This document shows positions 5,395 to 57,004 of a DNA stretch of 64,000 nt, in pieces. This DNA is from Hyphomicrobium sp. (lineage in GTDB: Bacteria; Pseudomonadota; Alphaproteobacteria; Rhizobiales; Hyphomicrobiaceae), in contig JBAZYB010000001.1 in the NCBI GenBank assembly GCA_041659545.1, positions 119,510 to 183,509 of the forward strand. Direction: 5' to 3'. The stretch's first letter is position 1. Each line of letters starts with the position of its first letter. A program made the translations under genes and the position numbers. A model generated the notes under the pieces. It was given only the letters and a program-made list of their open reading frames with translations, was not told where the DNA came from and made no database searches.

Positions 5395-6680
5395 AGACGC
5401 GCCAACTTCTTGCGTTGCTACTAGGCCTGGGTCTGTGCACCGCTGCGCTGCAGGCCGATTTTCTTGAGGTTCGTCGCTCCGTGACGCTCAAGGGCACGCC
5501 TCAGGGTGATGCTGAGGTCTTGGACAGCCTCTCAAAGGGCGTGAATGTCGAGTTGCTCCAAGACGGACAGCAGAATGGCTACTATCGTGTCCGGGTGCCC
5601 GAAACCGGGCTTGAAGGCTGGGTTTACCGGACCTTTGTCCGCCGGCACACGGGGGGCCTGCCGAGTTCGGCGCCACCATCCCCGCCGTTGGCCGCCGCGG
5701 CAGCGGGCGGAGGTGTCTGGATTCGCTTTGATCCGGAGTTTGTTCAAAAGCACTTTGACGGAGACCTTGCCTTCTCCGAAATCACCTTTGATGGGCAATG
5801 GAGAGCCGGTCCGCTGCACAACATGCCCGCCAACAAGGTGTCTTGTAGCGGAAAGGACGGCGAGGTTCACCTTGGCGCGTACGAGTCCTCAGTCGAGTTG
5901 GACGGCTCCGAACGCCCATTCTCGCGACTCGTCGGTCAGCCGACCGTGGCTTGGGGCTTGGTAGCCGAACCGCCAAATGCTACCCGTGACGACGCGGAGC
6001 TCCTGGAGAGCCTCGAAGGGTCGCGGGTCACGTTTACCGGCTACATGCGGGTCTGGAACGAGGGCCACTACGATGACGAATCGAAGAAGAACCCTGACGG
6101 TTCAAGTAACCCGAACCACGTTGTTGAACTGCATCCTGCCTGGCATCTGGAGTCTACTGATGAGGGATCGGAGGACTACGATTTCCCCCCGACAGCTCCC
6201 ATGCCGCGCTACGCCGGATATGGCCTGAGCAAGGCCGCCAGAATTTTCAGCGCGGTCTCCGCCGGCAACTGGCCTCTCGCCTATAACGCGAATGGTCAAT
6301 TGCACATCTTCTTGTCCGAGGAGTCAAACTTCTACCAGCTACCGGTGCGCATAACTTCAGTACAGCCCCTGGAGGACGGAATCGTCTTGCGCGCAGACGT
6401 TTGCAGTACGGTCGGTTGCGTGGGGAACCAAGTCCTCTATCGGAATCTTCGTCTTGTCACGCGTAGTGATAGCCAGGACGGAAAGCCATTCAAGAAGGGT
6501 GATGTGACTGAGGTGCTCGGCATCTTCAGTGTCCACCTCGGCAAGGCGAGGCAGATCGCCGCTCCGGCGAACGGCCAGTCACAAGCAGTGTCGGTCGCCG
6601 AGGCCCTTGAGTTCTTCGTCTTCACTCGCGCCGCGCAGAAGGCAGTCATGAACAGCAAGTGTGTTCCTGAGGGTTCGTAG
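5391..6680 (+). CDS. Secreted protein with N-terminal bacterial SH3-like domain
   Basis: Signal peptide MKTRQLLALLLGLGLCTAALQA. SH3b-like segment GYYRVRVPETGLEGWVYRTFV. The last 86 codons are duplicated at 60140..60398. Confidence 0.7.
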   Translation: MKTRQLLALLLGLGLCTAALQADFLEVRRSVTLKGTPQGDAEVLDSLSKGVNVELLQDGQQNGYYRVRVPETGLEGWVYRTFVRRHTGGLPSSAPPSPPLAAAAAGGGVWIRFDPEFVQKHFDGDLAFSEITFDGQWRAGPLHNMPANKVSCSGKDGEVHLGAYESSVELDGSERPFSRLVGQPTVAWGLVAEPPNATRDDAELLESLEGSRVTFTGYMRVWNEGHYDDESKKNPDGSSNPNHVVELHPAWHLESTDEGSEDYDFPPTAPMPRYAGYGLSKAARIFSAVSAGNWPLAYNANGQLHIFLSEESNFYQLPVRITSVQPLEDGIVLRADVCSTVGCVGNQVLYRNLRLVTRSDSQDGKPFKKGDVTEVLGIFSVHLGKARQIAAPANGQSQAVSVAEALEFFVFTRAAQKAVMNSKCVPEGS

Positions 6681-6868
6681 CGTGCCCCGATGAGTCCATA
6701 AAGTAAGGCGACCTTGCGGGGTGGGTGGCCATTCGGCCAAGGGTGGGCCGAGGCAGGTTCACCTTCGTCTGCCATGGACCAAACTGTCACCCGCCAAGTG
6801 ACAAGGTCTGGCTGAGAGGCGAGGCCCCAGCCAACGTGCACTCCGTCGGAGTGGAACAGTGGCAGAGG
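6422..6868. repeat. Left copy (first part) of a long direct repeat, matching 60140..60591
   Basis: My manual alignment gives about 92-95 percent identity across the last 259 nt of gene 5391..6680 plus about 190 nt downstream. Confidence 0.9.
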
Positions 6869-9203: not shown

Positions 9204-9292
9204 CCGTCCGACGAAATCCGGAGATCGGGGCCCTCAACGGCGTTCGAAGTCCGTCTTCCCAGCCACCTTGCCCTCTCAGTCGAACTGGGAAA

Positions 9293-9529
9293 TAGCGGCA
9301 GAGGATGGCAGAAGATGGAAGAAGGCGGAAGAGGATGGAAGCTATTGGCAGATGGGTGCGAAGCAGGGAGACGACCCCGAGCCTCTGCTGATTCCTGCTA
9401 GGCTCTGCCGTTGTCTGCCAAGTACTGCCGTTTCAGCCGGTTAGCCGTTTTGCCGCTCTGCCACGGTCTGCCGCGTACTGCCGTGGTATGCGGCTAGCTC
9501 CAATCAAATGACACTCGAAATGACACTCG
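9293..9529. repeat. 237-bp GGCAGA/TCTGCC phased-repeat element, copy 1 (matches 60581..60817)
   Basis: Left arm is six 10-nt units starting GGMAGA (GGCAGAGGAT GGCAGAAGAT GGAAGAAGGC GGAAGAGGAT GGAAGCTATT GGCAGATGGG). Right arm is rich in the reverse complement (CTCTGCC, GTCTGCC, ACTGCC). The element ends with the tandem AATGACACTCGAAATGACACTCG. Confidence 0.85.
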
Positions 9530-9797
9530 CCGCGAGCCTCTCCGAGATCTTCTCCTCGGAACACTTGCTGGAAAGGCTCCACCAGGTTTTCTGAAACAGT
9601 GCGGCGTCAGTCAGGATCCACCGTGAGCTTCGGACAGACCGAGCATCGACTCGGATGCCACCAGCGGGTCCCATTCTGGTCGCCGCTTGACAACCGCTGC
9701 GGAGACTGTGATCGGCGCCGTGTTCATGGACATCGCGCAAAGTGGTATTTTGCGGTCTGTGAGTAGCCCCGCCCATGAGTCACCCCAAGGTATCGAA

Positions 9798-21557: not shown

Positions 21558-22390
21558 AGCCGATCGCGGCTCTGAGCCGGGCCGACCGTTGCGTCTACGG
21601 ATCAAAGGCGACGGCGCTCGGCGAATTGACTCGGGCCGGATTCTCAGTGCCGGACGGCGTGGCGCTGCCAATGTCCGTGTTCGACGCCGTCGTCGACGGC
21701 GCCGGTCTCAGCGAACGAGTCCGCCTGTATGAGAGCGATGCCGCATCGGCTACGCCGCGGGAATTGATCGCGCTTGAAACGACCATGACCGGGCTGTTCG
21801 AGGGGGCGGCGCTTTCGGAACCAGATACCGTCGCCCTCGCTGCATTCGCTGAGGAAGGCACGACGTTTGCTGTCCGGAGTAGCGCAGCGAACGAGGATCT
21901 TGAAGGAGCGACCTTCGCAGGTCAGTATGTGTCATTTCTCAACGTCCCGCCCCACCTCCTTGTCTCACGGGTGTTGCAGTGCTTTGCGTCTCTCTTTGGT
22001 GCTCGCGCTGCGCTTTATCGCCGGAGAAAGCGCATCGAAGGAGTGGGGCGAATGGGCGTGATCGTGCAACAGATGGTGCAGGCGTCACATTCGGGTATCG
22101 TGTTTACGAAAGCGCCTCGGCACCCCGGAAAACTTCTGCTGGAATGCGGTTTAGGTTTGTGCGATGCAATTGTGTCTGGCCAGCTGGCGCCAAGCCGTTA
22201 CTACATTGACCGCTCCACGCTGGAGATTGACACCGCGCAGGAAACGTTTTCGCTGAGCGACAGCGACATCCGCCGAATTACACAGAAGGCACTTGTCATC
22301 GAAGCGCTGATGGGACACCCGCAGGACATCGAGTACAGCATCTTGAACGACGACTTGCTTGTGTTGCAGGCACGCCCGATTACGTCATGA
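21542..22390 (+). CDS. PEP synthase/PPDK N-terminal nucleotide-binding (PPDK_N) domain protein, stand-alone
   Basis: YGSKATALGELTRAGFSVPDG, FAVRSSAANEDLEGATFAGQYVSFLNV, MGVIVQQMV, GLGLCDAIVSGQ and PQDIEYSILNDDLLVLQARPIT match the PPDK_N pattern. It ends without swivel or PEP/pyruvate domains. Confidence 0.8.
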   Translation: MGDSLKPIAALSRADRCVYGSKATALGELTRAGFSVPDGVALPMSVFDAVVDGAGLSERVRLYESDAASATPRELIALETTMTGLFEGAALSEPDTVALAAFAEEGTTFAVRSSAANEDLEGATFAGQYVSFLNVPPHLLVSRVLQCFASLFGARAALYRRRKRIEGVGRMGVIVQQMVQASHSGIVFTKAPRHPGKLLLECGLGLCDAIVSGQLAPSRYYIDRSTLEIDTAQETFSLSDSDIRRITQKALVIEALMGHPQDIEYSILNDDLLVLQARPITS

Positions 22391-23241
22391 CTCGCCAGAC
22401 GGAAACCGGTGCGGCAGATTGGAACGACCGAGCGGTGCTCTACGGGTACGGCCTGTTCGAGACCATGCGTGTCTATCGCGGCGTGCCGTTCGTCTTCGAT
22501 GCGCATCTCGATCGCTTGGAGGCGTCGTTATCGTCGCTTGCCCTGAACAGGGTTCCGAATCGTGTGGCCTATCGTCGCGACGTGTTAGCGCTTGCCGCCT
22601 CGCTCGATGAGGGCGCAATCCGCCTGATGGTCACTGCTGGCAACCCCGATATGGATGTCGCGCCGACGCACCACGTCGCGGTCAGGGCTCTGCCCTATTC
22701 GCCCCGGTTGTACGCGACCGGAGCGACGGTCTGCATGGCGCGTGAACCTCGCAACGAACTCTCGATGCTGTGCCGCCACAAGACGCTGAACCAGCTTCAG
22801 AACATCATCGAGTGGCAGGCCGCCGTGAAGGCCGGCAGCCTGGATTGTCTGTTTCTGAACACGACGGGGCACCTGGCAGAAGGCTCGCGCAGCAACGTGT
22901 TCATAGTAAAACAGGGACGACTAATCACTCCCTCGCTGTCGTGTGGCATTCTTCCAGGCATTGCGCGCCTGATGGTGTTGGACCTGGCGCGGCAAGCCGG
23001 TCTATTCGTGACCGAGGCGCCTGTGACGACAGCGGACTTGTTCTCGAGTGATGAGTGCTTCTTGACGAACTCACTTGCCGAAGTGCTCCCCGTGCGTCAG
23101 ATTGGCACCGCTCGGCCGCAGCACTGTCCCGGCCCGATCACGAGCCTGCTGGCACAGCGATATCGCCAATGTACCGACGGCGTCACGCCCTACGCATTGC
23201 CGTCTCTTCTTCTATCCGAATGTGGAGATAGCCGCACGTAA
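22387..23241 (+). CDS. Class IV (fold type IV) PLP enzyme, aminodeoxychorismate-lyase/branched-chain aminotransferase-like
   Basis: YGYGLFETMRVYRGVPFVFDAHLDRL, the Lys context CRHKTLNQLQN, SNVFIVKQGRLITP and ECFLTNSLAEVLPV. ATGA overlap upstream. Confidence 0.75.
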   Translation: MTRQTETGAADWNDRAVLYGYGLFETMRVYRGVPFVFDAHLDRLEASLSSLALNRVPNRVAYRRDVLALAASLDEGAIRLMVTAGNPDMDVAPTHHVAVRALPYSPRLYATGATVCMAREPRNELSMLCRHKTLNQLQNIIEWQAAVKAGSLDCLFLNTTGHLAEGSRSNVFIVKQGRLITPSLSCGILPGIARLMVLDLARQAGLFVTEAPVTTADLFSSDECFLTNSLAEVLPVRQIGTARPQHCPGPITSLLAQRYRQCTDGVTPYALPSLLLSECGDSRT

Positions 23242-23248
23242 CGCTCGC

Positions 23249-24646
23249 GTGGGAAATCGCTGCGTGCTCGTGCACAATGCGATCCGGTACTCGGGTTCTC
23301 GACTTGATGGCCTGTCCGGGCAGTTGGCAGAAACCCTGGCGGCGTCGGGAGTGTCGGTCCACAGTCGCGTTGCGGTTTGCCTGGGAAACTCGCCGGCCTT
23401 TGTGATCGCGGTGCTGGCCTTGGACAAGCTGGGTTGCGGCGTCTTCTACCTGAGCCCGCGATCCACTCAGGCAGAGGGCCAGGATTTCATCACGAGAGCA
23501 AAGCCAGCGGCTTTGCTGCTGCCGGGCGGGGACGCTTCGACGCACTTCGCCTGCCCTGATGCAACTGAGTTCAGGCCCGGGCAGCCGTTCTCAATATCTA
23601 TCGTCAGGCTCTCAGGTGTCGATGCGAAGGGCTCGGTCACCGCGCACATGACTTCGGGGGTCTCAGGTCGCTCGAAGATCTCCCTGAGACCACCTGCGGC
23701 GATCGAAGATGAGCTCGAGACGTTTGCGGCCCGGCTGGATCTAGGGCATGAGGACGCGACTGTTTGCCCCTGCAGCCTGGCGCACATGTACGGGTTTGTG
23801 AACGGCTTGCTCCTACCGTTGTGGTCTGGACGTCCGCTTGTGCTCGTCGACAACTGGTTGTTGCCAAACGAGCTGATCCGCCAGATTCGCCTGTTCCGGC
23901 CCCGCGTGCTGATCGGCGTGCCGGTCATGTTCGACGCCTTGTCACGCGCCTACGGAGCTGCCGCCGATGACCTGGCATCGCTGCGGATCTGTTTTTCGGC
24001 CGGGGCGCCGCTCACGCGAGCTACGGTGGACGCATTCGGCAGGACGTTCGGCTTGCCCATTCATCAGCAGTATGGTTCGACCGAGACCGGTGTCATCGCC
24101 GTCAACCTACTCGAGCAGCCTGGGCGAGATCCGCTCTCGGTGGGAAGGCCCCTGGCTGGCCGCCATGTGACGGTCTGCACGGACGACGGCGAGGCGTTGC
24201 CTGGAGTGCGTGGAGAGATCGTCGTTCGAGGCCGAGCCGTGGCGTCGGGATACTTGGACGACCAGGACGATTTGTCCCGGTTGCGGGAGGGCGCGTTCTA
24301 CACCGGCGATCTCGGCGCCTTCGATGCAGACTCAGGTCTTCATGTCGTCGGGAGGGCCACCGCGACCATCAACGTCGCCGGCCTGAAGGTCGATCCGGTT
24401 GAAGTGGAGGCGGTGTTGAGCGCCTGCGATGCGGTCGCCGAATGCGCGGTGGTGCCGGGTGTCGATCGATCCGGCAACGAAGTGGTCCAGGCGTTTGTGG
24501 TTCAGAGGCGGGAAATCTCTGCCCGAGAGATTCAGCTGTTCTGCCGGCGGCGTCTGTCGGCGCACAAGATCCCGAGGCTGGTGCGATTCGTTGACGCGTT
24601 ACCCCGAACGGCGAGCGGCAAGGTGCTCGTCAGGCAGCTCATGTGA
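23249..24646 (+). CDS. AMP-dependent (ANL superfamily) ligase 1
   Basis: Divergent A3-like TSGVSGRSK, QQYGSTETG, YTGDLG and the C-terminal LPRTASGKVLVRQL. Start set to GTG 23249, just after the upstream stop. Confidence 0.8.
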   Translation: MGNRCVLVHNAIRYSGSRLDGLSGQLAETLAASGVSVHSRVAVCLGNSPAFVIAVLALDKLGCGVFYLSPRSTQAEGQDFITRAKPAALLLPGGDASTHFACPDATEFRPGQPFSISIVRLSGVDAKGSVTAHMTSGVSGRSKISLRPPAAIEDELETFAARLDLGHEDATVCPCSLAHMYGFVNGLLLPLWSGRPLVLVDNWLLPNELIRQIRLFRPRVLIGVPVMFDALSRAYGAAADDLASLRICFSAGAPLTRATVDAFGRTFGLPIHQQYGSTETGVIAVNLLEQPGRDPLSVGRPLAGRHVTVCTDDGEALPGVRGEIVVRGRAVASGYLDDQDDLSRLREGAFYTGDLGAFDADSGLHVVGRATATINVAGLKVDPVEVEAVLSACDAVAECAVVPGVDRSGNEVVQAFVVQRREISAREIQLFCRRRLSAHKIPRLVRFVDALPRTASGKVLVRQLM

Positions 24647-24655: not shown

Positions 24656-24958
24656 ATGACCCATCAAGAGATTAAGACGGATCTCATTCGGATCCTGACG
24701 TCCGAAAAGTTTAAGGAACTCGAAATCGATCCGGCCGATATTCATGACGATACTTCGTTGTTGAATGAAGTAATGGTCGATTCGCTCCAGTTGCTCGATT
24801 TCATCGCGGAGATCGAGCACGTGTTCGGCTTCAAGGCTACCGCGAAATACCTCAACCTGGACGTGTTCGACCGGTTCGCAGACGTCATCGACTTCGTTCA
24901 TCGATCCATGAAGGACGCACAGGTGGCGACTCTAGTCGGAGATCAAGGTGGCGACTAA
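24656..24958 (+). CDS. Acyl/peptidyl carrier protein 1
   Basis: 100 aa. LLNEVMVDSLQLLDFIAEIE carries the DSL phosphopantetheine-attachment motif. Confidence 0.75.
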   Translation: MTHQEIKTDLIRILTSEKFKELEIDPADIHDDTSLLNEVMVDSLQLLDFIAEIEHVFGFKATAKYLNLDVFDRFADVIDFVHRSMKDAQVATLVGDQGGD

Positions 24959-26326: not shown

Positions 26327-27112
26327 TTGTTGTCGATGAGTGCCACAGAAAGCATGACGAGGCAACGGTTGCGCGACCGGTTCGAATCGATCGACGCGTC
26401 GCTGCCAACGGCGTATAGAGCGTTCGCGACTTTCCTGAACCTCGGCTACGTCCCGAATGGCGCCCCTCAGCGAGCGAGAGGTGGTCTTGCACTTCCCAAA
26501 CTGAATGCCGCCTCGACCAGATTGTTGTTTGAAGTCATCGGGTCATGCTCTTTGGATGGGAGAGCAGTCGTGGAGGTGGGAGCTGGTCGTGGCGGGAACC
26601 TCGCGGCAATTCAGCGGCACTATGGGCCACGAGTTCTGGTCGGGGCCGACCTTCTGTTCGGTAACACGAGATTCTGCGTCGAACATCACGACATCGGTTC
26701 AGGCGGATTCATCACGGCTGACTCGGAGGCGCTGCCGCTGCAGAGCGCCGCGGTTGACGTCGTCATCAACATTGAGTCGTCCCACTACTACCCGAACCGC
26801 CGTTCCTTCTTCGCTGAAGTCCAGCGCGTCCTCGCCGGGGGAGGCGACTTTCTTTACGCCGACATCCTGCCGGTCGACGAATTCGAGCGCGCGAAGACGT
26901 CTCTGGCCTCCCTCGGGCTCGCGATTGTTCGAGACGACGACATTACGGCCAACGTCGTTTTGTCATGCGAAGAGATTGGCAGGAGGAGGGCAGCGGGTCG
27001 TGGTGGTGGTCTGTATGACACCTTCGTCGTCGTTCCAGGCAGTCCCGAGTTCGACGCGCTGGCGTCTGGCCGCACGCCGTATCGAATTCTTGCCTTGACC
27101 AAGCCGCTCTGA
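26327..27112 (+). CDS. Class I SAM-dependent methyltransferase
   Basis: Motif I VVEVGAGRGGNL, then VDVVINIESSHYY and GGDFLYADI. Confidence 0.75.
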   Translation: MLSMSATESMTRQRLRDRFESIDASLPTAYRAFATFLNLGYVPNGAPQRARGGLALPKLNAASTRLLFEVIGSCSLDGRAVVEVGAGRGGNLAAIQRHYGPRVLVGADLLFGNTRFCVEHHDIGSGGFITADSEALPLQSAAVDVVINIESSHYYPNRRSFFAEVQRVLAGGGDFLYADILPVDEFERAKTSLASLGLAIVRDDDITANVVLSCEEIGRRRAAGRGGGLYDTFVVVPGSPEFDALASGRTPYRILALTKPL

Positions 27113-27135: not shown

Positions 27136-27750
27136 GTGTCGATAAGCAAACACATTGCGTTAATCGATAACTACGACTCGTTCACCTTTAACTTATTTCA
27201 ATGGTTGAGGGGGGCCGGGGTCGGAGTGGATGTCGTGCGGAACGATAAGGCGACAGTCGGTGAAATTCGCGCCATGTGTCCAGACGGGATCGTAATCTCC
27301 CCGGGCCCCAAGGCGCCGGTCGACGCCGGCATCAGCATGGGCGTGATTAGCGAGCTTCGTGAAGTGTGCCCCATCCTTGGTGTCTGCCTGGGCCATCAAT
27401 GCATCAACGAGGTCTTCGGCGGCCGTACGGTGCGTGCCCCGTCGCCTTGGCACGGCAAGACCTCAGCTATTCGACACGATGGCCGACAGTTGTTTGCGGG
27501 CATTCCTCAGTCTTTCGAGGCCGCCCGGTACCACTCCTTGGTGGCGGAACGTCGCAGCATTCCAGATTCGCTGGCGATCAGCGCCTGGACCGAGGACGGG
27601 CTCGTGATGGGTCTGCGTCACCGAACCCTGCCCATTGAGGGTGTGCAGTTCCATCCGGAATCATTTCTGACCGGCTGGGGTGGAGCGATCCTGCAGAACT
27701 TTGTGAACCAACTAGCTACGAGCCCTCTCAAGTACGGCAAGGCAGGATGA
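27136..27750 (+). CDS. Glutamine amidotransferase subunit of aminodeoxychorismate/anthranilate synthase (PabA/TrpG type)
   Basis: LIDNYDSFTFNL, GVCLGHQ (nucleophile Cys) and VQFHPES. GTG start. Confidence 0.85.
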   Translation: MSISKHIALIDNYDSFTFNLFQWLRGAGVGVDVVRNDKATVGEIRAMCPDGIVISPGPKAPVDAGISMGVISELREVCPILGVCLGHQCINEVFGGRTVRAPSPWHGKTSAIRHDGRQLFAGIPQSFEAARYHSLVAERRSIPDSLAISAWTEDGLVMGLRHRTLPIEGVQFHPESFLTGWGGAILQNFVNQLATSPLKYGKAG

Positions 27751-29237
27751 GTCCCCCCCGCCTCTCGGTGATGGATCTCCCGATCGACGCACCGGGCTCG
27801 TCGTTCCTTGACATGGCAGAAGCCTGCTCTGGGGAGCCGGAGTTTGTGTTCCTGGATGCGCAGGGAGACCACCCAGGGTGGGGAATGTCGATGTTCGCTT
27901 TCGCGCCAGTGGCCACCATCGTGGCGCGCAGCGATGAGACCACGGTCCGGAAGTGCGGGGTGGAGCGGCGGTCATCGCTGCCTGTTCTGGAGAGCATCGA
28001 AGAAGAATTGCGTCCTTACCGTCTGGACCTGCCAGATGGTCAAGCGCATCCCCACTTCGTCGGCGGCGCCGTCGGATACCTGGCATACGAACTCGGCCGC
28101 CAGTTGGAGGTGCTGCCATCCTCCGCGGTAAATGATCTCAGGTTGCCCACAGCCTATTTCAATATCTACAATTTTGCCGTTTGCTACGACCATCAGAGTG
28201 GTCGCTGCCGTTTGGCCTATGTTGACGGCTTTCCCTCTGACGCGCCCACGCGAGAAGCAATTCTGCGGCGCCTTGAATCGGCGTCGGCGACCCCGCGGGT
28301 TGCGGCAGCAGATTGGCGTGGACGGTTCGGAGCCATCACTTCCGACCTATCGAAGGCGGAGTATCTCGACGCGCTGAGTCGAATCAAGGAGTACATACGA
28401 AGCGGAGACGTGTACCAGGTGAACATGACCCAGCGTTTCCGGGCTCCACTGGGGATGTCTCCCTGGTCTCTCTGGAGGCGACTGGCTGCCATCAACCCCG
28501 CGCCCTTCGCGGCATATCTCAACCTGGATGAGCATTCAGTGATTTCGTCATCACCGGAGCTATTTCTCCGCGTTCGCGGCGACCGTGTGGAAACCAGGCC
28601 CATCAAGGGGACGATCCGTCGCAGCGCAGATTCCGTTGAAGACGCCATGTTCGCGCGTGAGCTGCTAGGCAGCGCGAAGAACAATGCCGAACTGGCGATG
28701 ATCGTCGATCTGATGAGGAATGATCTCGGCCGCGTGGCAATGCCGGGTACGGTCGAGGTCGAGGCTTGCCCAGTCCTGGAAACATACCCGTCGGTGCATC
28801 ACCTGGTCGCCACGGTGGCCGGCCGCCGCGATCCGTCCCTGTCGTTGTCAACGCTATTGCGCGCGACATTTCCGGGCGGCTCGATCACCGGTGCGCCGAA
28901 GATCCGCGCGATGGAGATCATCGACGAGCTTGAGCCCGTAGCACGCGGTGTATACACGGGCAGCATCGGGTATATCAGCTGCCACGGCACGATGGACCTC
29001 AACATCGCGATCCGGACGGTCATTGTGAAAGGGGACACGGCCTACTTTCACGCCGGCGGAGGCGTTGTCGCCGACTCCGAACCGGAACAGGAATATGAGG
29101 AACTGCTGCTCAAGGCGAGCCGTCTCGCGCAGGCCCTCACAGCCGACGGCCCGGTCGGGACGGAGAGCCCCTCCGGTCGTCTGCGCAGTGCCAGCGAAAG
29201 CCGAAACCCTTCCGCCATAACACAGAGGAGTAAGTGA
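27747..29237 (+). CDS. Chorismate-utilising enzyme component I (aminodeoxychorismate synthase PabB-like, or anthranilate/ADIC synthase)
   Basis: GDVYQVNMTQRF, SSSPELFLRV, FPGGSITGAPKIRAMEIIDELE and RGVYTGSIGY. ATGA overlap with the amidotransferase gene. Confidence 0.85.
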   Translation: MSPPRLSVMDLPIDAPGSSFLDMAEACSGEPEFVFLDAQGDHPGWGMSMFAFAPVATIVARSDETTVRKCGVERRSSLPVLESIEEELRPYRLDLPDGQAHPHFVGGAVGYLAYELGRQLEVLPSSAVNDLRLPTAYFNIYNFAVCYDHQSGRCRLAYVDGFPSDAPTREAILRRLESASATPRVAAADWRGRFGAITSDLSKAEYLDALSRIKEYIRSGDVYQVNMTQRFRAPLGMSPWSLWRRLAAINPAPFAAYLNLDEHSVISSSPELFLRVRGDRVETRPIKGTIRRSADSVEDAMFARELLGSAKNNAELAMIVDLMRNDLGRVAMPGTVEVEACPVLETYPSVHHLVATVAGRRDPSLSLSTLLRATFPGGSITGAPKIRAMEIIDELEPVARGVYTGSIGYISCHGTMDLNIAIRTVIVKGDTAYFHAGGGVVADSEPEQEYEELLLKASRLAQALTADGPVGTESPSGRLRSASESRNPSAITQRSK

Positions 29238-31198
29238 TGAAGAGTGTCGCGATCCTTGAGCTGGGCCTGATGGACCAGATGGTCCCGCTCGTCGGCGGCT
29301 ACCTCGAAGCGTATGCGAACCGCGACCCCTGGCTGCGCCAGTCCTATCGAATCGAAAAGCTCTGGGAGAGCGCGCGGGTCGACCAAGAACTGCTGCTGAA
29401 GCGCCTGGTGGACTGTGACGCCGATATCTACGCCCTCAGTTGCTATGTCTGGAACACCGGGTTGATCAAGGCGCTGCTGCCGCAACTACGAGCGCTCAAA
29501 CCGGAGGCCCAGTACATTCTTGGTGGGCCGCAGGTAATGGATCAAGCGCCGCGGATCCTGTTGCCGGAGACGGCAAACGTGACTATTTGCAATGGTGAGG
29601 GCGAAACCACCTTTGCCGACTATCTCAGGGAACTGACCGAGTCCAAGCCGGACCTGCACAAAGTGGGAGGCCTGAGTTTCATCGCCGACGGAACCGTTGT
29701 GACGACAGATAAACGGCAGCGGCTGACATCGATCGACGATATCCCGTCGCCGTTTCTGACGGGACTCTTCCGGGGGCAGTACCGCATGTCGATCCTGGAA
29801 ACCAACCGCGGTTGCCCGTTTCACTGCAGCTTCTGTTACTGGGGGGCCGCCACCAACGATCGGGTCTACAGCTTCGATCGGGATCGCGTGCGAGACGAGA
29901 TTGCTTGGATTGCCAAACAGGGGATTCCGTTCATGTTCCTGGCGGATGCCAATTGGGGCATGCGGACGCTGGACGTCGAGCAGACGCGGCACATCGCTGA
30001 GTGTCGGAAACAATACCTGTGCCCGCAGACCGTCTTTTACTCTGCGGCAAAGAACTCGCCAGACCGTGTCTGCGAAATCGTCGAGATTCTCGATAGTGCT
30101 GGAATTCTCGCGGCTCAACCGATTTCGCTGCAAACACAGGACGATCACACGCTGCAGGTCATCTCTCGAGAAAACATCAAGAAAGACGCCTATGCGCGAG
30201 TGCAAAAACGACTGGCGGAACGGCACATCAGCTCGTTCACTGAGGTGATCTGGCCCCTGCCGGGAGAGACGCTCACGACCTATACGACCGGAGTCGCCAG
30301 CGTTTGCCGAGCGGCCGGCCACACCAACACGATCATTTCGTATCCGCATCTCCTACTCGTCAACACACCCATGCATCGCCAACGCGAGGCGCTGGGATTG
30401 GTGACCAAGGGCATTGGCGACGGCCGCTGCGAGTCGGAACTCATCATCTCGACCGCCACAGCAAGCTACGATGACTACCTCGACGGGTTGCGCTTCTATT
30501 TCGCGACACTGCTCGCCTACAATTCACGTGGTCTGCGAAATCTCATGGCGTATCTGGACGCGGGTAACCGCGCCAGTTACGAAAGGGTGCTCTCGGAATT
30601 TGGCGAGTATTGCCGCGCCAACGTTGACCGTTCGCCGCTCTTCAGATACATAGAGGACGAGTCGATCGCAGGCCTGGAGGCGGCACGCTACAACAACTTC
30701 GGTGCTGTGATGCACTACGCGCTATGGCAACACCGCTCCGATTTCCAAGACCTATTGTGTGACTTCGTTGCCTCGCGATCCTATTGCGCCGACCGGGAAG
30801 CGCGGCTAGTGTTTGAGCTGGATCGCGTCCTGCTGCCCTTTATCTACAGCACCCCAACCCGCCAGAAATCCAATAGGCCGTTCGACTTGCTGTCCGTGAC
30901 CGCGAAGCCGGAGCGCAACATCAGCATCAGTGTACCTGAAGATCTGCGGGCCCTGGCCGCGACTATCCTCGCGCCTTACGGCGGAATAAATCAATCGACC
31001 GCGCGGTCCTACTCTATCGACCATGTGCGCCATCAGTTTCCCCATTGGCCGGCCAAGGGTATGCAGCAGAACGCCGACTATTGCTACGCCATGCTGTTGC
31101 GTATCGAGCGAATTACGCCCGTATGCTACGAGTCTGACAGTCCCGCCGCGGCACTCGGCGCGCGCACCGAAGAAAGCGCACTCGGGCGCATGCTGTGA
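29234..31198 (+). CDS. Cobalamin-binding-domain radical SAM enzyme (class B type), paralog 1
   Basis: N-terminal B12-like domain (VAILELGLMDQMVPLVGGYLEAY...DIYALSCYVWN...ILGGPQV) and the CX3CX2C cluster motif NRGCPFHCSFCYWG. 654 aa. Confidence 0.85.
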   Translation: MMKSVAILELGLMDQMVPLVGGYLEAYANRDPWLRQSYRIEKLWESARVDQELLLKRLVDCDADIYALSCYVWNTGLIKALLPQLRALKPEAQYILGGPQVMDQAPRILLPETANVTICNGEGETTFADYLRELTESKPDLHKVGGLSFIADGTVVTTDKRQRLTSIDDIPSPFLTGLFRGQYRMSILETNRGCPFHCSFCYWGAATNDRVYSFDRDRVRDEIAWIAKQGIPFMFLADANWGMRTLDVEQTRHIAECRKQYLCPQTVFYSAAKNSPDRVCEIVEILDSAGILAAQPISLQTQDDHTLQVISRENIKKDAYARVQKRLAERHISSFTEVIWPLPGETLTTYTTGVASVCRAAGHTNTIISYPHLLLVNTPMHRQREALGLVTKGIGDGRCESELIISTATASYDDYLDGLRFYFATLLAYNSRGLRNLMAYLDAGNRASYERVLSEFGEYCRANVDRSPLFRYIEDESIAGLEAARYNNFGAVMHYALWQHRSDFQDLLCDFVASRSYCADREARLVFELDRVLLPFIYSTPTRQKSNRPFDLLSVTAKPERNISISVPEDLRALAATILAPYGGINQSTARSYSIDHVRHQFPHWPAKGMQQNADYCYAMLLRIERITPVCYESDSPAAALGARTEESALGRML

Positions 31199-39034: not shown

Positions 39035-40951
39035 ATGTCCCTTAAAGTCGCCCTGCTAGAGTTTTCGGTATGGGATCGCATGGTCCCACTCGTTGGTGGC
39101 CTCCTAGAGGCTTCTGCCCTGCAGCGGCCTCGGCTCAGAGATAGCTGTGAGTTTGTGAAGTTCTCGACCTCGGTGCGCGGCGCCGAACTCACGCCGATTC
39201 TTGCCATCGAGGCGGACGTCTACGCCGTGTCCTGTTACGTGTGGAACACAGGCTTCGTCACGAAGCGCTTGCTCCCCGAGATCCTGGCGAGAAATCCGAA
39301 GGCTCGGATACTGCTCGGCGGGCCACAGGTCATGCATAAAGCGGAACGGTACATTCCGCAGCAGAGCCACCGAGTGACGGTCTGCAATGGCGAGGGCGAG
39401 GACACCTTCGCGAACTACCTCGAGCAGTTACTCGTCGAACGCGGTGACCTCGCGAACGTTAACGGACTGTCCTTCTATCGAGGGGGCACGCTCGTCACCA
39501 CGCCGCCGCAAAGCAAGATCGCAGACTTTGCGGCCTACCCGTCGCCTTATTTGGCAGGCGCTTTTGATGGCGGGCGATTCATGTGCGCGGTCATCGAAAC
39601 CAATCGAGGTTGTCCCTTCAAGTGCACGTTCTGCTATTGGGGCGCGGCCACCAACAGTCAAGTGCGGAAGTTCGATCAGGATCGCGTGATGGCTGAGATC
39701 GAGTGGGCGAGCCGAAACCAGGTGTACCTGCTGGTTTTGGCCGACGCCAACTTCGGGATGCTAAAGCGAGACCACGAGATCGCCGAATGGATCGCCGAGT
39801 GCCGGCGGCGCAGTGGCTTTCCGAAGGCGGTATCTTTCAGTGCATCGAAGAACACGCAGCCTTCTCGTAATGCTGCAACGGTCGATACGTTGGCCGGCGC
39901 CGGTCTGCTGAGCAATTTTCCAGTGTCGATTCAGTCGATCAGCGAGAACGTGCTTGAGAACGTCAATCGCAGCAACATCTCAACTGAGGGTTACGTCACC
40001 CTGCAGGGGCTCTTGAATGACCGTGGCCATGATTCCACGATCGAGCTGATATTCCCGTTGCCAGGAGAGACCTTGCCGTCGTTCAAGCAGGGTGTCGCAA
40101 AACTATTCAAGCTCGGCGCTTCCACCTTCAACGTGTTTCCATTGCTGCTGATCAACAACGTGCCAATGGAGACCCAGCGCGAGGAGTTCGGGCTGGTGAC
40201 GGTCGAAGACCCTGACGCGAATAGCGACGCCGAGCTCGTCGTGCAGACCAAATCGGTGAGCCACGAAGACTACCTGCGGGGATTGCGCTTCATCGCCCAC
40301 GCGACGTCGTTGCTCAGCTGTCATACGCTCCGTTGCGTGGCCCGCACGCTGGATGCCAAGAGCGGAATTGGCGTGGACGAGTTGATCGATGCCTTTGACG
40401 CCTACTGTCACAGCCGGCCGGACCATCCTTATGTCGAGTACGTCTCGATGGCGACCGCCAACTCGCGGTTCTTCAGTTTTGGGATGCTTGGTTCGCTATT
40501 GCACCGCTGCGCCGGAGTTTGGGTGCACGAGGTCGATCAATTGTTGGCCGGCTTCATGGAGCAACATGAGTATTGGAATGATGACGAGGTAAGGGTAGCT
40601 TTTGAGCTGGACCTTCTGAACCGTCCCCACATCTACTCCAACCAGTCGATCGTCGAGAAGTCGAAGTTTCTGGGTCACCTCACGATGACTCCGTTAGATG
40701 ACGGTGATCGCGTCAGCGTGACGGTGCCGGACGAGTTCCGTGCGACGGCAGCAAGGCTGCTGACCCGGGGGGCAGCTCCGCTCCCGCCGAGCAGCAGCTA
40801 CGTCATCAACTACAAGTCTCAGCAGTCACAGCATGTGTATGTGGCGGGCAAGCCGGACGACAACTACAACTACTACTGCACTGGGTTGTTAGTGCGGATC
40901 AACACCGTCCTGCCGAAATGGACGCCTGCCGGCGCCACGCGCCCGCACTAG
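39035..40951 (+). CDS. Cobalamin-binding-domain radical SAM enzyme, paralog 2
   Basis: VALLEFSVWDRMVPLVGGLLEAS, DVYAVSCYVWN and NRGCPFKCTFCYWG. By eye it is more similar to 50473..52437 than to 29234..31198. Confidence 0.85.
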   Translation: MSLKVALLEFSVWDRMVPLVGGLLEASALQRPRLRDSCEFVKFSTSVRGAELTPILAIEADVYAVSCYVWNTGFVTKRLLPEILARNPKARILLGGPQVMHKAERYIPQQSHRVTVCNGEGEDTFANYLEQLLVERGDLANVNGLSFYRGGTLVTTPPQSKIADFAAYPSPYLAGAFDGGRFMCAVIETNRGCPFKCTFCYWGAATNSQVRKFDQDRVMAEIEWASRNQVYLLVLADANFGMLKRDHEIAEWIAECRRRSGFPKAVSFSASKNTQPSRNAATVDTLAGAGLLSNFPVSIQSISENVLENVNRSNISTEGYVTLQGLLNDRGHDSTIELIFPLPGETLPSFKQGVAKLFKLGASTFNVFPLLLINNVPMETQREEFGLVTVEDPDANSDAELVVQTKSVSHEDYLRGLRFIAHATSLLSCHTLRCVARTLDAKSGIGVDELIDAFDAYCHSRPDHPYVEYVSMATANSRFFSFGMLGSLLHRCAGVWVHEVDQLLAGFMEQHEYWNDDEVRVAFELDLLNRPHIYSNQSIVEKSKFLGHLTMTPLDDGDRVSVTVPDEFRATAARLLTRGAAPLPPSSSYVINYKSQQSQHVYVAGKPDDNYNYYCTGLLVRINTVLPKWTPAGATRPH

Positions 40952-50472: not shown

Positions 50473-52437
50473 ATGACTGCACAGAAGAGACACGTCGCTC
50501 TGTTCGAGTTCTCCGTGTGGGATAGGATGGTGCCCCTCGTAAGCGGCTTGCTGGAGGCTGGTGCGTGCGCCCGGCCGGAATTGCGAGACAGCTACCGGTT
50601 CTCGAAGTACAGCACCAGCACCGGCGCCGCTGCCATTGATCGCGTCATCGACGTCGAGGCCGACGTCTATGCTTTCTCTTGCTACGTCTGGAACACCGGA
50701 TTGGTGCGACGGATTCTTCCGGCGGTGTTGGAGCAACGGCCGCACGCAAGGATTTTGCTGGGTGGTCCGCAAGTAATGAACAAGGCCGCCTCGTATCTGC
50801 CAAAGGATTGCGAGAGAACCGCCGTGTGCAATGGGGAGGGCGAGATTACGTTCTCGAACTACCTTGCCGAACTCCTGAATGAAGAACCAGACCTTGGTCG
50901 GGTCAATGGACTGAGTTTCTACCGGGATGGGACTCTCATCGACACACCCAAGCAGGATCGAATCGCGGACCTAGACAGCTATCCGTCTCCTTACCTTGCG
51001 GGCTGCTTCACCGGCCAGCGGTTCGTCTATGGCGTCATCGAGACGAATCGTGGTTGCCCCTTTAAGTGCACTTATTGTTACTGGGGTGCTTCGACTAACA
51101 GCAAGGTACGGAAGCAGTCCGAAGACCGCGTGTTTCAGGAACTTGAGTGGCTGAGCCAGCAGAAAACACACATGATCCTCATCGCCGACGCCAACTTTGG
51201 CATGTTGAAGCGTGATCAGGACATTGCCGCCCATATCGTCGCTTGTAAGTCGAAGTACGGGTTTCCGATGACCGTCTCGTTCAGCGCGTCGAAGAATACT
51301 CCAGACAAGAACGCGGAGTTGGTCAAGGTCCTGGCGGATTCCGGTCTCTTGAGCACACTACCGATTGCCATTCAGTCGACCAATCCGGAGGTGCTCAAGA
51401 ACGTCGATCGCAGCAATATTTCTTCCGCGGGGTACATTCAGCTGCAGAACGCCGTCAATGAACGTGGGCAGAGCTCCTATGTCGAGCTGATCTGGCCGTT
51501 GCCAGGCGAAACCCTTTCCTCCTTCCGCGCCGGAATCGAAGACTTGTTCCGCCAGGGCGCGAGTACTTTCAATGCCCATCCGCTGATGCTCATCAACAAT
51601 GTTGAGATGGACGACCATCGTGAGCGCTTCGGCTTGGTCACCGTGCCGGACCAGGATCCGAACAGCGAGGCGAGTCTCGTCGTGTCCACCGCGTCGGTGT
51701 CTGCCGGTGAGTACCTCGATGGCCTGCGGTACATGTGCCATGTGACGGCCTTGCTCAGCTGTCGCGGGCTGGCGCATTCGGCGAAGTGGCTCGACCAGCG
51801 GCAGCAACTCTCGTTGGGGCAACTGTTCGCTCGGTTTGACGACTTCTGCCTTGCCCGGCCGGATCATCCCTACACGGCGCACGTCGGCACTGCGACATCG
51901 GGTGACGGCGCCTACAGTTTCGCCATGCTGGGGTCGGTCTTCCATCTCACCTGTGGCGCGTTGATTCGAGAGTTCGACCAATTGCTTCATGAGTTCGTGC
52001 AGACTCTAGAGCAGTGGTCTGATCCTCGACTGCGCGCACTTTTTGCTCTTGACCTATTGAATCGGCCGTACGCGTACCGGAACACACGAATCGTCGAACG
52101 GGGCGGCCTGCTTCAGGGATTCAATTGCCGCCCTCTCGCAAAGAATGACCGGGCGCAGGTCGAAGTGCCTCCAGCCTATGTCGCACTCATTGCGGAGGCT
52201 TTGGGCGTGCCGGAGGCTGGAAGGTGCGCTGTTTACGAGGTGTCTTACAAGTCCGAGCAGTATCCGTATGTGGCCGGCAAGAAGGAGCTCGACTACCACA
52301 CCTATTGCACTGGGATGCTGTTACGTATGAACGCCGTGGCAGCCCGCTGGACACCCTTGGGGCAATCCCGCGAGTTCTCAATTTCGAGCGATGTCAGCCG
52401 AATCGGCGTCCCCTCCGAATCGGCGGTCACTGAATAG
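50473..52437 (+). CDS. Cobalamin-binding-domain radical SAM enzyme, paralog 3
   Basis: VALFEFSVWDRMVPLVSGLLEAG, DVYAFSCYVWN and NRGCPFKCTYCYWG. 654 aa. Confidence 0.85.
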   Translation: MTAQKRHVALFEFSVWDRMVPLVSGLLEAGACARPELRDSYRFSKYSTSTGAAAIDRVIDVEADVYAFSCYVWNTGLVRRILPAVLEQRPHARILLGGPQVMNKAASYLPKDCERTAVCNGEGEITFSNYLAELLNEEPDLGRVNGLSFYRDGTLIDTPKQDRIADLDSYPSPYLAGCFTGQRFVYGVIETNRGCPFKCTYCYWGASTNSKVRKQSEDRVFQELEWLSQQKTHMILIADANFGMLKRDQDIAAHIVACKSKYGFPMTVSFSASKNTPDKNAELVKVLADSGLLSTLPIAIQSTNPEVLKNVDRSNISSAGYIQLQNAVNERGQSSYVELIWPLPGETLSSFRAGIEDLFRQGASTFNAHPLMLINNVEMDDHRERFGLVTVPDQDPNSEASLVVSTASVSAGEYLDGLRYMCHVTALLSCRGLAHSAKWLDQRQQLSLGQLFARFDDFCLARPDHPYTAHVGTATSGDGAYSFAMLGSVFHLTCGALIREFDQLLHEFVQTLEQWSDPRLRALFALDLLNRPYAYRNTRIVERGGLLQGFNCRPLAKNDRAQVEVPPAYVALIAEALGVPEAGRCAVYEVSYKSEQYPYVAGKKELDYHTYCTGMLLRMNAVAARWTPLGQSREFSISSDVSRIGVPSESAVTE

Positions 52438-55012: not shown

Positions 55013-55036
55013 TCGGAGAGCGCTTCTAACGCAGTA

Positions 55037-56122: not shown

Positions 56123-56152
56123 CCACTTCGTGAGCTGTGGTCCCTTGACCTC

Positions 56153-57004
56153 ATGCCGATCATGAACCCTGAGGAATTTGCGCTCGCAAGTCGGCGCGCC
56201 CATCAAGCGGACTCAGTGGTCGATGTATATGGGGTAACGGTGGGTGGGCTGAGACCCGTGGTGTGCGCCGGCCCCTGCTCTGTGGAGACACCGGAGCAGA
56301 TATTGGCATGTGCTGAAGCAGTCCGGAAATCCGGGGCACATCTGCTTCGAGCCGGAGCGTACAAACCGCGCACGTCACCCTATTCCTTCCAGGGCCTCGG
56401 CGAGAGAGGTCTCAAGCTTCTCGCCGAGGTGCGGGAGGAAACGGGCCTCGGGATCGTGACCGAGGCGGTTGATACCGACACATTCGACCTCGTCGAGGAA
56501 TATGCTGACTGCGTGCAAATCGGCGCACGAAACATGCAGAATTTCTCGCTCCTGCGCCGTGCAGGTAGATCGGTTCGCCCAATTCTTCTAAAGCGCGGGC
56601 TCTGCGCAACATTGCAAGAGTTCTTGTTAGCCGCCGAGTATGTCTTGGCTGGCGGCAATCCGCGGGTGATCCTCTGTGAACGCGGCGTGCGAACATTCGC
56701 GGATCATTCGCGTACGACACTCGACCTCAGCATCGTGCCGGCCGTGAAGAGGCTGAGTCACCTTCCAATCATCGTGGATCCGAGTCACGCTACCGGCGTT
56801 CGGGACGCGGTGCCTTCGATGTCCCTAGCGGCGATAGCTGCGGGCGCGCATGGTTTGTTGATAGAGATGCATGTGCAGCCGAATCAGGCGCTCACTGACG
56901 GCCCGCAGGCGATTTATCCGTCGCAGCTGGAACGAATCGTATCTGATACCGCTTCGATTGCAGCCATTCTTGCCCAATCCAAAGTGCCCCAACCGCTTAT
57001 TTAA
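56153..57004 (+). CDS. 3-deoxy-7-phosphoheptulonate (DAHP) synthase, type I-beta (KDO8PS-like) family
   Basis: CAGPCSVE, LRAGAYKPRTSPYSFQGLG, VQIGARNMQN, LLKRG and VDPSHATG. Confidence 0.8.
   Translation: MPIMNPEEFALASRRAHQADSVVDVYGVTVGGLRPVVCAGPCSVETPEQILACAEAVRKSGAHLLRAGAYKPRTSPYSFQGLGERGLKLLAEVREETGLGIVTEAVDTDTFDLVEEYADCVQIGARNMQNFSLLRRAGRSVRPILLKRGLCATLQEFLLAAEYVLAGGNPRVILCERGVRTFADHSRTTLDLSIVPAVKRLSHLPIIVDPSHATGVRDAVPSMSLAAIAAGAHGLLIEMHVQPNQALTDGPQAIYPSQLERIVSDTASIAAILAQSKVPQPLI

Follow-up and report, generated by a model that had tools for sequence, protein, structure and literature searches.

The stretch of 64,000 nucleotides analysed here (further referred to as the window) contains a large uncharacterised biosynthetic gene cluster of the antibiotic type that, in our estimate with a probability of about 0.65, has its own dedicated route leading from central carbon to an aromatic amine used as a building block. 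The original prediction of a pathway-specific branch to 4-amino-4-deoxychorismate (ADC) and 4-aminobenzoate (PABA), provided with its own DAHP synthase, is supported by the identity of PabB, by the absence of the regulatory domain from the DAHP synthase, by the coupling of pabAB to a CysS-family gene and by the recurrence of the same cassette elsewhere. The value of this assignment is that of an anchor: ADC, and most likely PABA, would be a building block of a 40-kb cluster otherwise matching no described pathway, and concrete substrates are now suggested for its ligase, carrier protein and radical SAM enzymes.

Gene order and origin of the contig

Open reading frames and Pfam matches agree in placing the four predicted genes on the plus strand: pabA (27136..27750; a glutamine amidotransferase of the PabA/TrpG type, component II of ADC synthase), pabB (27747..29237; component I of ADC synthase), the gene of a class IV PLP enzyme (22387..23241; ADC-lyase-like, an atypical putative PabC) and the gene of a type I-beta DAHP synthase that lacks the regulatory domain at its N-terminus (56153..57004). 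The same strand encodes an ANL adenylating enzyme (ANL1; 23249..24646, PF00501/PF13193), a free carrier protein (carrier protein 1; 24656..24958, PF00550), a SAM methyltransferase (26327..27112, PF08241/PF13649) and three paralogous cobalamin radical SAM methylases of the CysS family (paralogue 1, 29234..31198; paralogue 2, 39035..40951, PF04055 and PF02310; paralogue 3, 50473..52437, matching CysS 9n1b). According to Pfam, the cluster encodes SAM methyltransferases and a TauD-family oxygenase, and an NRPS megasynthetase for condensation or adenylation is absent from the 64,000-nt window, whose ANL ligases and carrier proteins are all free-standing.

The predicted ATGA overlap of pabA and pabB was read directly in the sequence at positions 27747–27750. 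The pabB stop in turn overlaps the start of CysS-family paralogue 1 (GTGATGA, with GAGGAG ahead of it), and pabAB is translationally coupled to this CysS homologue. The claim that all elements form one co-directional unit holds for the strand but not for an uninterrupted unit. A plus-strand run extends from 14914 to 53323 and is followed by a Tmk-like gene on the minus strand (53285–53965, PF02223) and by a second plus-strand run from 54047 to 58670. The DAHP synthase gene belongs to the second run, 27 kb downstream of pabAB; given the minus-strand gene ahead of it, it is not in the same transcript as pabAB.

The contig is probably of Acidobacteriota origin, mis-binned into a Hyphomicrobium MAG. 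Four ADOP permeases are encoded on it and nowhere else in the bin, the second GltB of the bin sits on it, and the closest relative of its NrdA (76%) was found in an Acidobacteria MAG. Comparison of the window flanks with 25 same-genus genomes yielded no match for either flank. The tetranucleotide content does not separate the contig from the rest of the bin, but genome bins are themselves built on this measure. The other genes of the bin include TrpE-TrpG-TrpD (C134), a PabB-PabC fusion (C29), a type II DAHP synthase (C323) and KdsA (C108), and a third PabB was found in none of 24 same-genus genomes. The paralogue count in the bin was rejected as proof of extra copies, since the contig is probably mis-binned; for the same reason, these other copies prove nothing about the housekeeping pab and aro genes of the host.

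DAHP synthase and the two components of ADC synthase

The DAHP synthase (283 aa, PF00793) is indeed of type I-beta, scoring 409 bits against NF006421 (cut-off 335) and 358 bits against TIGR01361 (cut-off 267.75), and only 104 bits against the KDO8P synthase model (cut-off 314). The residues C42, K71 (in KPRTS), H212, E238 and D249 are present (metal ligands Cys/His/Glu/Asp). The NF006421 match covers profile positions 67–335 of 338, and the protein aligns to residues 68–331 of the 338-aa T. maritima enzyme. Neither an N-terminal ferredoxin-like nor a chorismate-mutase regulatory domain is present in it, and the reading frame cannot be extended upstream due to an in-frame stop at 56120–56122. 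Its relatives are housekeeping-type acidobacterial enzymes; those with 65–70% identity are about 340 aa long and contain PF18152, which is absent from the window protein and from its orthologue with 88% identity. The locus of the latter keeps the order of hydrolase, Tmk (minus strand), ABC, ABC-2, DAHP synthase, small ORF and ANL genes. Judged by sequence, the enzyme belongs to the unregulated subclass of type I-beta, still a member of the family, and is probably feedback-insensitive. Such a naturally truncated DAHP synthase could serve pathway engineering.

PabA (204 aa, GTG start) matches PF00117 (E 1.5e-54) and TIGR00566 trpG_papA (199 bits, cut-off 121). Its triad C84/H173/E175 is intact, residing in the GVCLGHQ and FHPES motifs. 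Component I (496 aa, PF00425 and PF04715) has E. coli PabB as its best solved structure (E 3.6e-90), and the lysine of its PIKGT motif, K287, occupies the place of K274 in E. coli PabB, the catalytic lysine of ADC synthase. In the bin's own TrpE, in TrpE of E. coli and in EntC, this position is taken by Ala.

The original prediction left the product of this pair open. Formation of anthranilate or ADIC by a component I of the TrpE/PhzE type is very improbable, as is the use of ADC for p-aminophenylalanine in a PapABC-type route. The score of component I against TIGR00564 trpE_most (367 bits) numerically equals that against TIGR00553 pabB (365.9 bits), but the former misses its cut-off of 517.7, whereas the latter passes its cut-off of 328.4, and the PIKGT lysine also argues against TrpE. 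In a tree having E. coli PabB and the TrpE pair among its references, and neither PhzE nor PapA, component I falls into the PabB clade with E. coli PabB (support 96/95), apart from the TrpE pair, as the suggested phylogeny was meant to decide. The predicted product of PabAB is thereby narrowed to ADC. p-Aminophenylalanine is unlikely given that the contig has no PapB/PapC-type genes: a six-frame search of the whole contig revealed no CM_1, CM_2 or PDH_N domain, that is, no mutase or dehydrogenase. The gene at 27747–29237 is therefore assigned, on sequence grounds, to ADC synthase component I of the PabB type, not the TrpE type; the families and catalytic residues of PabA and PabB are established, and their activity would follow from these.

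The four genes could also be ordinary folate and shikimate genes of the host, located in or beside the operon. The nearest relatives of PabB outside clusters (about 54% identity) are encoded in housekeeping pabAB loci beside folK, the relatives of the DAHP synthase are of the housekeeping type as well, and a second copy cannot be demonstrated for the real host. However, start and stop codons overlap with those of cluster genes on both sides, and it is specifically the regulatory domain, kept by its housekeeping relatives, that the DAHP synthase has lost. Further, the acidobacterial genome nearest by NrdA contains chorismate-binding genes with only 32–43% identity, none of them close to the window PabB. 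The ANL-MT-PabA-PabB set (MT, methyltransferase) recurs in other uncharacterised clusters with 45–67% identity, its gene order is found in other biosynthetic contexts, and synteny of the cassette is seen on the independent contigs L091, L096 and L285. The PabA proteins of L285 and L096 are 64–67% identical to that of the window. We consider the housekeeping origin of these genes improbable.

The class IV PLP enzyme

The class IV enzyme (284 aa, PF01063, E 4.8e-55) is a plausible ADC lyase by its sequence motifs. Comparison of its active site with PabC, IlvE and DAAT, as the original prediction recommended, yielded an ADC-lyase motif, not that of BCAT or DAAT, but without the canonical PabC tyrosines. 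Residues Y19, F24, T26 and R79 correspond to positions [FY]31, F36, T38 and K/R97 of the ADCL row in the Hohne motif table (PMC8048526), and the PLP lysine K132 is present. The BCAT rule (G38 and the Y95-x-R97 carboxylate trap) fails, as the enzyme has T26 and A77-I-R79; so does the DAAT rule (Y36, V38, RxH loop), with F24-E-T26 and no RxH. Arginines occupy positions 40 and 97, which is forbidden by the R-amine transaminase rule. The proposed (modelled) ADC-binding residues of P. aeruginosa PabC, Tyr22, Thr29, Lys80 (as Arg), Tyr112 and Lys140, all have counterparts, with Y19, T26, Y104 and K132 aligned to the structure 2y4r.

A tyrosine at position I or II of the active site holds for 125 of 129 PabC sequences (PMC3174152). 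In the window enzyme, the position I tyrosine (RGY loop) is absent, loop 83–97 containing no Tyr at all, and position II (Lys+4) is occupied by Gln136, invariant across the cluster-borne clade. The protein passes no NCBIfam cut-off, those of the pabC models included (NF005800, 145 bits with the cut-off of 308; TIGR03461, 129.6 bits with the cut-off of 176.85), and its best sequence and fold matches are BCATs. The fold search was discarded as a discriminator: for the AlphaFold model (pLDDT 87), BCAT, ADCL and DAAT structures all had TM 0.73–0.79.

The genomic context was compared by tblastn in 80 metagenome loci. A PabB gene lies within 3 kb of the class IV gene in 38 of 57 cases for the T/S38 type and in none of 21 for the V38 type. 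Position I was left out of this comparison, since loop indels make it unreliable. Arg168 in EGSRSN was dropped as a clade marker because it was built into the pattern used for the metagenome scan. In the window, L091 and L096 the class IV gene and pabB belong to the same operon at a distance of 4–6 kb; in L282 and L283 pabB is not seen beside the class IV gene. The nearest non-cluster relative, P0143 (42% identity), is encoded in a pabA-pabB-pabC operon and likewise has no position II tyrosine, Phe being found there.

These data bear on an unlikely alternative, in which PabAB make ADC for the cluster and the class IV enzyme catalyses some other PLP reaction, e.g. a transamination linked to the aldehyde dehydrogenase, aldo-keto reductase and split PEP-utilising module encoded nearby; ADC would then be aromatised by the host PabC or by another cluster enzyme, or used without aromatisation. 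The loss of both canonical tyrosines is in line with it, as is the gene order: the class IV gene begins within an ATGA shared with the PPDK_N gene ahead of it, and is preceded by Aldedh and AKR genes. Contig L285 carries ANL-MT-PabA-PabB-hydrolases with no class IV gene in 13 kb, and the Gln136-type clade also has members in clusters that contain PEP-utiliser, carrier and CysS-like genes but, within the 13–21 kb that can be seen, a Trp-dioxygenase-like gene in place of pabAB. Moreover, class IV enzymes can be bifunctional, Rv0812 being reported as both ADC lyase and D-amino acid transaminase (PMC8105722). On the other hand, the motif is of the ADCL type (T at 38, no Y at 95, R at 40 and 97) and conforms to none of the rules for BCAT, DAAT and R-amine transaminase, all proposed ADC-binding residues are retained, and the operon-encoded P0143 shares the missing position II tyrosine. 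The variant contigs are incomplete, and pabAB could sit beyond their visible part. ADC lyase is a plausible assignment.

The closest described relatives of such a lyase are the position II PabC proteins of L. pneumophila, T. thermophilus and Bacillota pabABC operons (PMC3174152). They share with the window enzyme the FET motif with Thr, Arg97, the catalytic Lys and the absence of the RGY loop, and the operon-encoded member has the 42% identity given above. The differences are Gln136, which replaces the position II tyrosine throughout the cluster-borne clade, and the separation of the window gene from pabB. The PabC-like Gln136 clade (support 98/97), brought to light here as breaking the tyrosine rule, might tentatively be seen as a new functional type, either a third, tyrosine-free kind of ADC lyase or a neofunctionalised PLP enzyme. 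The latter would be common to a family of NRPS-independent, carrier-protein-based clusters fed by PabAB or by a Trp-dioxygenase-like enzyme, in which CysS-type methylases would take part in building alkylated aryl-amine units. The probable host belongs to the Acidobacteriota, for which hardly any characterised natural products are known.

Proposed pathway and related systems

In the proposed pathway, the DAHP synthase without the allosteric N-terminal domain would feed the shikimate pathway whatever the levels of aromatic amino acids. PabA would hydrolyse glutamine, and PabB with Lys287 would add the ammonia at C4 of chorismate, producing ADC, from which the ADC-lyase-like class IV enzyme may eliminate pyruvate to give PABA. 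By analogy with known systems, ANL1 would adenylate PABA and load it on the free carrier protein; the tethered unit would be tailored by the methyltransferase and the CysS-type methylases, as alkoxy-PABA in cystobactamid, and the finished unit would be passed on by hydrolase-fold transferases, not by NRPS condensation domains.

The roles of ANL1 as the activator of the aminobenzoate unit and of carrier protein 1 as its acceptor are those we infer from context. Orthologues of ANL1 (45–48% identity) are encoded beside the MT-PabA-PabB set or the class IV gene in L285, L096 and L286, and those of the carrier protein (46%) in L096 and L282. The solved-structure matches of ANL1 were rejected as a substrate call, given that benzoate-, anthranilate- and 4-chlorobenzoate-CoA ligases are all among them with no clear specificity. 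The methyltransferase gene is always ahead of pabA in related cassettes: its orthologues (52–58% identity) are encoded immediately ahead of PabA on L096 and L285, whereas on L282 the orthologue comes after the Trp-dioxygenase-like gene. The solved-structure search with the methyltransferase found no relative.

Equipping a cluster with its own PABA branch and a deregulated DAHP synthase is a well-known strategy, not surprising in itself, but found here in a new, unusual setting. The precedents named by the original prediction proved real. In the chloramphenicol cluster, cmlE (DAHP synthase) and cmlB (ADC synthase) are second copies of primary enzymes, for which the authors propose a role in securing the shikimate flux (PMC4249514). 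As in the window, both enzymes are cluster-borne; however, in the chloramphenicol route a mutase (CmlD) and a dehydrogenase (CmlC) lead on to p-aminophenylalanine, such domains being absent from the window contig, and the DAHP synthase of the window belongs to type I-beta and has undergone loss of the regulatory domain. The candicidin cluster likewise contains pabABC, i.e. PABA synthase genes and an ADC lyase, within a secondary-metabolite locus (PMC5143413), but PABA there primes a modular PKS, whereas the window cluster probably uses a free ANL ligase to attach it to a free carrier, and the lyase candidate of the window is atypical.

The NosI/NosJ/NosK system of nosiheptide, compared by gene type and serving as an analogy only, combines a free adenylating enzyme with a free carrier; a radical SAM enzyme methylates the indolic acid on the carrier, from which a hydrolase-like enzyme releases or transfers this aryl acid (PMC5585349). 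The window cluster has the same gene types, but the aryl acid is different and the window has no thiopeptide machinery. No described cluster with the gene combination of the window was found in the literature.

Taken with the three CysS homologues, the PABA branch suggests an alkoxy-aminobenzoate chemistry like that of cystobactamid/albicidin, with assembly independent of NRPS condensation domains. A close parallel is the PABA tailoring of cystobactamid, albicidin and coralmycin, in which CysS works alongside CysF/CysC, with CysJ, CysQ and CysB as helpers. Two of the three B12 radical SAM paralogues match CysS in full length, including the C-terminal domain (about 625 residues): paralogue 1 with E 1.6e-139 and 469 bits against 9n1b, and paralogue 3 with E 2e-178 and 598 bits, residues 6–629 against 7–629. 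Paralogues 2 and 3 are 55% identical to each other. The SAM methyltransferases and the TauD-family oxygenase match CysF/CysQ and CysJ in family only (PMC7966384). The window cluster shares with cystobactamid and albicidin the possession of its own PABA-branch genes, although the cystobactamid literature examined does not name the cys genes supplying PABA. In contrast to these systems, the window cluster has separate pabA and pabB genes and employs free ANL ligases and carriers instead of the NRPS condensation/adenylation megasynthetase, and its host is probably an acidobacterium rather than a myxobacterium or Xanthomonas.

The substrates of CysS are methoxy-aminobenzoyl units linked to a carrier or to pantetheine (PMC12846815; PMC7966384). 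Of the CysS residues, paralogue 3 keeps W75, W206, S273, F485 and D607 and carries the changes W188Y, F238L and W271S. Among the residues contacting the aminobenzoyl moiety, S273 is retained in all three window paralogues, none of which has kept W188 or W271; F238 is not conserved, and differences among the paralogues are seen at F485 (Phe or Tyr) and at D607.

Chorismate-binding component I and its amidotransferase

PabAB and the DAHP synthase bear out the original prediction of a pathway-specific chorismate-to-aminobenzoate supply, while a lyase role for the class IV enzyme is plausible. The dedicated status of the genes is based on the operon structure, the recurrence of the cassette and the truncation of the DAHP synthase. 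Open reading frames were found at the predicted positions of all four genes.

Gene 27136–27750 encodes a 204-aa class I amidotransferase from the TrpG/PabA subfamily, in which the nucleophile Cys84 and His173/Glu175 are intact. Its stop codon overlaps the ATG of component I (27747–29237), giving the ATGA coupling described earlier. Component I scores above the pabB equivalog cut-off and below the trpE cut-off, and its best solved relative is PabB from E. coli (E 3.6e-90). The PIKGT lysine is the nucleophile distinguishing ADC (4-amino-4-deoxychorismate) synthases. In component I it is Lys287, aligned with Lys274 of E. coli PabB, while Ala is found at this position in the bin's TrpE, E. coli TrpE and EntC. 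In a maximum-likelihood tree, component I grouped with E. coli PabB and every other protein carrying PIKGT in one clade (support 96/95), away from TrpE. Given these four tests, the predicted product is ADC, neither anthranilate nor ADIC. Thus, among the products initially regarded as undecidable by eye (PABA, anthranilate, ADIC and a p-aminophenylalanine precursor), anthranilate and ADIC are ruled out. The Pap-type p-aminophenylalanine route has no support, as CM_1, CM_2 and prephenate dehydrogenase domains were not found in six frames anywhere on C1, the contig carrying the window.

The closest relative of component I is an 88% identical orthologue on the metagenomic contig L091, where the gene order is kept. 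The remaining relatives are at most 55% identical and are called PabB wherever a name is given; one of them (54%) adjoins folK, a folate context.

The class IV enzyme as a candidate ADC lyase

The function of the class IV PLP enzyme (22387–23241) is not decided by sequence or fold searches, since BCATs slightly outscore ADC lyases and the structural model (pLDDT 87) fits BCAT, ADCL and DAAT structures equally well. Its residues say more, and were compared with the Hohne motif table given in PMC8048526. Y19, F24, T26 and A77-I-R79 fit the ADCL row. The enzyme breaks the rules for BCAT (G38 and Y95), DAAT (Y36, V38 and RxH) and R-amine transaminases (no Arg or Lys at positions 40 and 97), so that the proposed comparison of PabC with IlvE/DAAT yields an ADCL-type motif. 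Moreover, all five residues modelled around ADC in PabC from P. aeruginosa (Tyr22, Thr29, Lys80, Tyr112, Lys140; Lys80 is Arg in the Thermus orthologue) are matched. The Thr38 marker was tested on 80 metagenome loci fetched using the alignment of the class IV clade. A PabB gene lies within 3 kb of 38 of the 57 class IV genes with Thr or Ser at position 38 (several of the other 19 loci had almost no flank) and of none of the 21 genes with Val.

On the other hand, both canonical tyrosines are missing: the enzyme has no RGY loop and carries Gln136 where position-II PabCs have Tyr, while one or the other active-site tyrosine is present in 125 of 129 PabCs (PMC3174152). Gln136 is invariant across a 17-sequence alignment, and the core Gln136 clade (15 sequences, support 98/97) occurs in more than one kind of biosynthetic cluster. 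P0143 (42% identity), the nearest relative outside such clusters, comes from a complete Bacillota genome, where its gene is part of a pabA-pabB-pabC operon. It has Phe at position II, so the tyrosine is not indispensable.

Three variants of the cassette were seen. Variant A (the window and the metagenomic contigs L091 and L093–L096) has the order PPDK_N, class IV, ANL, carrier, swivel domain, unknown protein, methyltransferase, PabA, PabB. Variant B (L282, L283) retains the carrier, swivel domain, unknown protein, methyltransferase, class IV and CysS-like genes and has a gene of the Trp-dioxygenase family, with no pabAB in the visible 13–21 kb. Genes for a multicopper oxidase, a GDSL hydrolase, a PPTase and a P450 also stand in place of pabAB in L282 (a contig of JGI 3300038384) and L283. 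Such replacement next to retained shared genes suggests that suppliers of the aromatic unit are interchangeable between sister clusters. Variant C, a related cassette on L285, consists of ANL, methyltransferase, PabA, PabB, two hydrolases and a methyltransferase, with no class IV gene in 13 kb. It also contains a NusG-family gene (5530–6087), possibly a cluster-specific antiterminator. Hence PabAB most faithfully accompany ANL1 and the methyltransferase, and the class IV enzyme accompanies the PEP-utiliser module. The variant contigs are incomplete at their ends, which weakens their count against a lyase role. We put the probability that the class IV enzyme acts as an ADC lyase at a little over one half.

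Cluster layout, DAHP synthase and proposed use of the aminobenzoate unit

All four genes share the + strand; however, they do not form the single co-directional unit originally described. The + strand runs 14914–53323 and 54047–58670 are split by one minus-strand gene (53285–53965), whose product is a P-loop kinase resembling Tmk (PF02223, E 1.5e-8). No other gene within the cluster is on the minus strand. The kinase gene is convergent with the hydrolase gene 52472–53323 and overlaps its 3' end; its position is kept in the metagenomic contig L284.

Pfam annotation covered 36 genes of the window. It yielded a duplicated FtsX permease, an aldehyde dehydrogenase, an aldo-keto reductase, a PEP-synthase-like enzyme split into PPDK_N and swivel-domain genes, two ANL ligases, a PaaK-like ligase, a free carrier protein, four B12-type radical SAM enzymes, several SAM methyltransferases, an AsnB-like enzyme, PhyH and TauD oxygenases, an Asp/Glu racemase, hydrolase-fold proteins, an HMGL-like protein and an ABC-2 exporter; neither an NRPS condensation domain nor a ketosynthase was seen among these genes. 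Cluster-borne PABA-branch genes are already known, as in candicidin, chloramphenicol and cystobactamid-type pathways; here they occur alongside CysS-type methylases in a cluster family that is as yet uncharacterised and has no NRPS condensation domains.

The DAHP synthase (56153–57004, 283 aa) passes two DAHP synthase cut-offs, scores far under the KDO8P synthase cut-off and has the KPRTS motif and the ligands Cys42/His212/Glu238/Asp249. Against the 338-position profile its match begins at position 67, and against the T. maritima enzyme (338 aa) its alignment begins at residue 68. A longer frame is ruled out by an in-frame stop 30 nt upstream. Relatives at 65–70% identity, several named Bryobacterales or Bryobacteraceae, have about 340 aa, with PF18152, the ferredoxin-like regulatory domain, ahead of the barrel; the window protein and its 88% orthologue both lack it. 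The best solved match is 3pg8 (272 aa), an engineered truncation of the T. maritima enzyme reported to have lost tyrosine inhibition; in keeping with this, 3pg8 and 1rzm are offset by 65 residues. The natural reading is that this synthase would be a paralogue escaping feedback control. The order hydrolase, Tmk-like (minus strand), ABC, ABC-2, DAHP synthase, small ORF, ANL recurs in L284, the 88% relative; this contig and L091 derive from one sample, so that it provides no independent evidence. The small ORF (57149–57361, +, 70 codons), between the DAHP synthase and the PaaK-like ligase, has a 69-aa counterpart at the matching site in L284 and could encode a scaffold or precursor peptide.

Directly after pabB comes a B12 radical SAM gene (29234–31198) whose start overlaps the pabB stop codon (GTGATGA after GAGGAG). 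Its product matches a solved CysS homologue over its full length (469 bits). The paralogue at 50473–52437 scores 598 bits, and the third (39035–40951) is 55% identical to the latter. In cystobactamid biosynthesis CysS iteratively methylates the methoxy group on carrier- or pantetheine-bound aminobenzoyl units (PMC12846815; PMC7966384). The window paralogues keep the cobalamin-side Trp75 and Trp206 and Ser273, which binds the aromatic amine in CysS. The substrate-contacting Trp188 and Trp271 are replaced, as is Phe238 in two of the three, so the exact substrate or position may differ. The SAM methyltransferases and the TauD-family oxygenase match CysF/CysQ and CysJ in type (PMC7966384), but unlike the cystobactamid cluster the window has no NRPS. 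ANL1 (23249–24646) and carrier protein 1 (24656–24958) lie between the class IV gene and pabA, and their orthologues accompany pabAB or class IV genes in L096, L285 and L286. By analogy only with NosI/NosJ/NosN/NosK (PMC5585349), an aryl acid would be activated by ANL1, tethered to the carrier, tailored on it and transferred by a hydrolase.

Two DNA repeats of about 450 bp (6422–6868 and 60140–60592, 93% identical) stand on either side of the cluster region. A family of about 250-bp repeats has at least seven copies on C1 (71–90% identity): 9255–9600 and 60550–60830 in the window and 91468, 99647, 106745, 111587 and 117808 in C1 coordinates.

Host of the contig

The TrpE of the bin (90–92% identical to Hyphomicrobium) identifies it as a Hyphomicrobium MAG. 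Several features of C1, however, make it most likely that this contig belongs to a member of the Acidobacteriota and was mis-binned. It is 213 kb long, the next contig of the bin being 60 kb; the four ADOP permeases of the bin are all found on it, as is a second GltB that shares just 55% identity with the other copy. The closest match to its NrdA (76%) is in an Acidobacteria MAG, and none of the best 80 matches is from Hyphomicrobium; its DAHP synthase has acidobacterial relatives. Neither window flank has DNA matches in 25 same-genus genomes. Any whole-genome argument for the window must carry this caveat. Consequently, neither the trpE, pabB-pabC, type II DAHP synthase and kdsA genes on other contigs of the bin nor the absence of a third PabB from 24 congeners is informative about the cluster host.

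In the Hyphomicrobium part of the bin, contig C29 carries a gene (L010:5212–7062, minus strand) for a 616-aa fusion of PabB with a short class IV domain of the PRK07546 type; most same-genus genomes searched have open frames of about 630–660 aa at the corresponding PabB match. A 517-aa protein on C1 (190683–192236; L194:7174–8727, minus strand) scores 200.6 bits against the cut-off of 200 for the NCBIfam CBASS cGAMP-activated phospholipase and may mark a defence locus about 7 kb past the window end.
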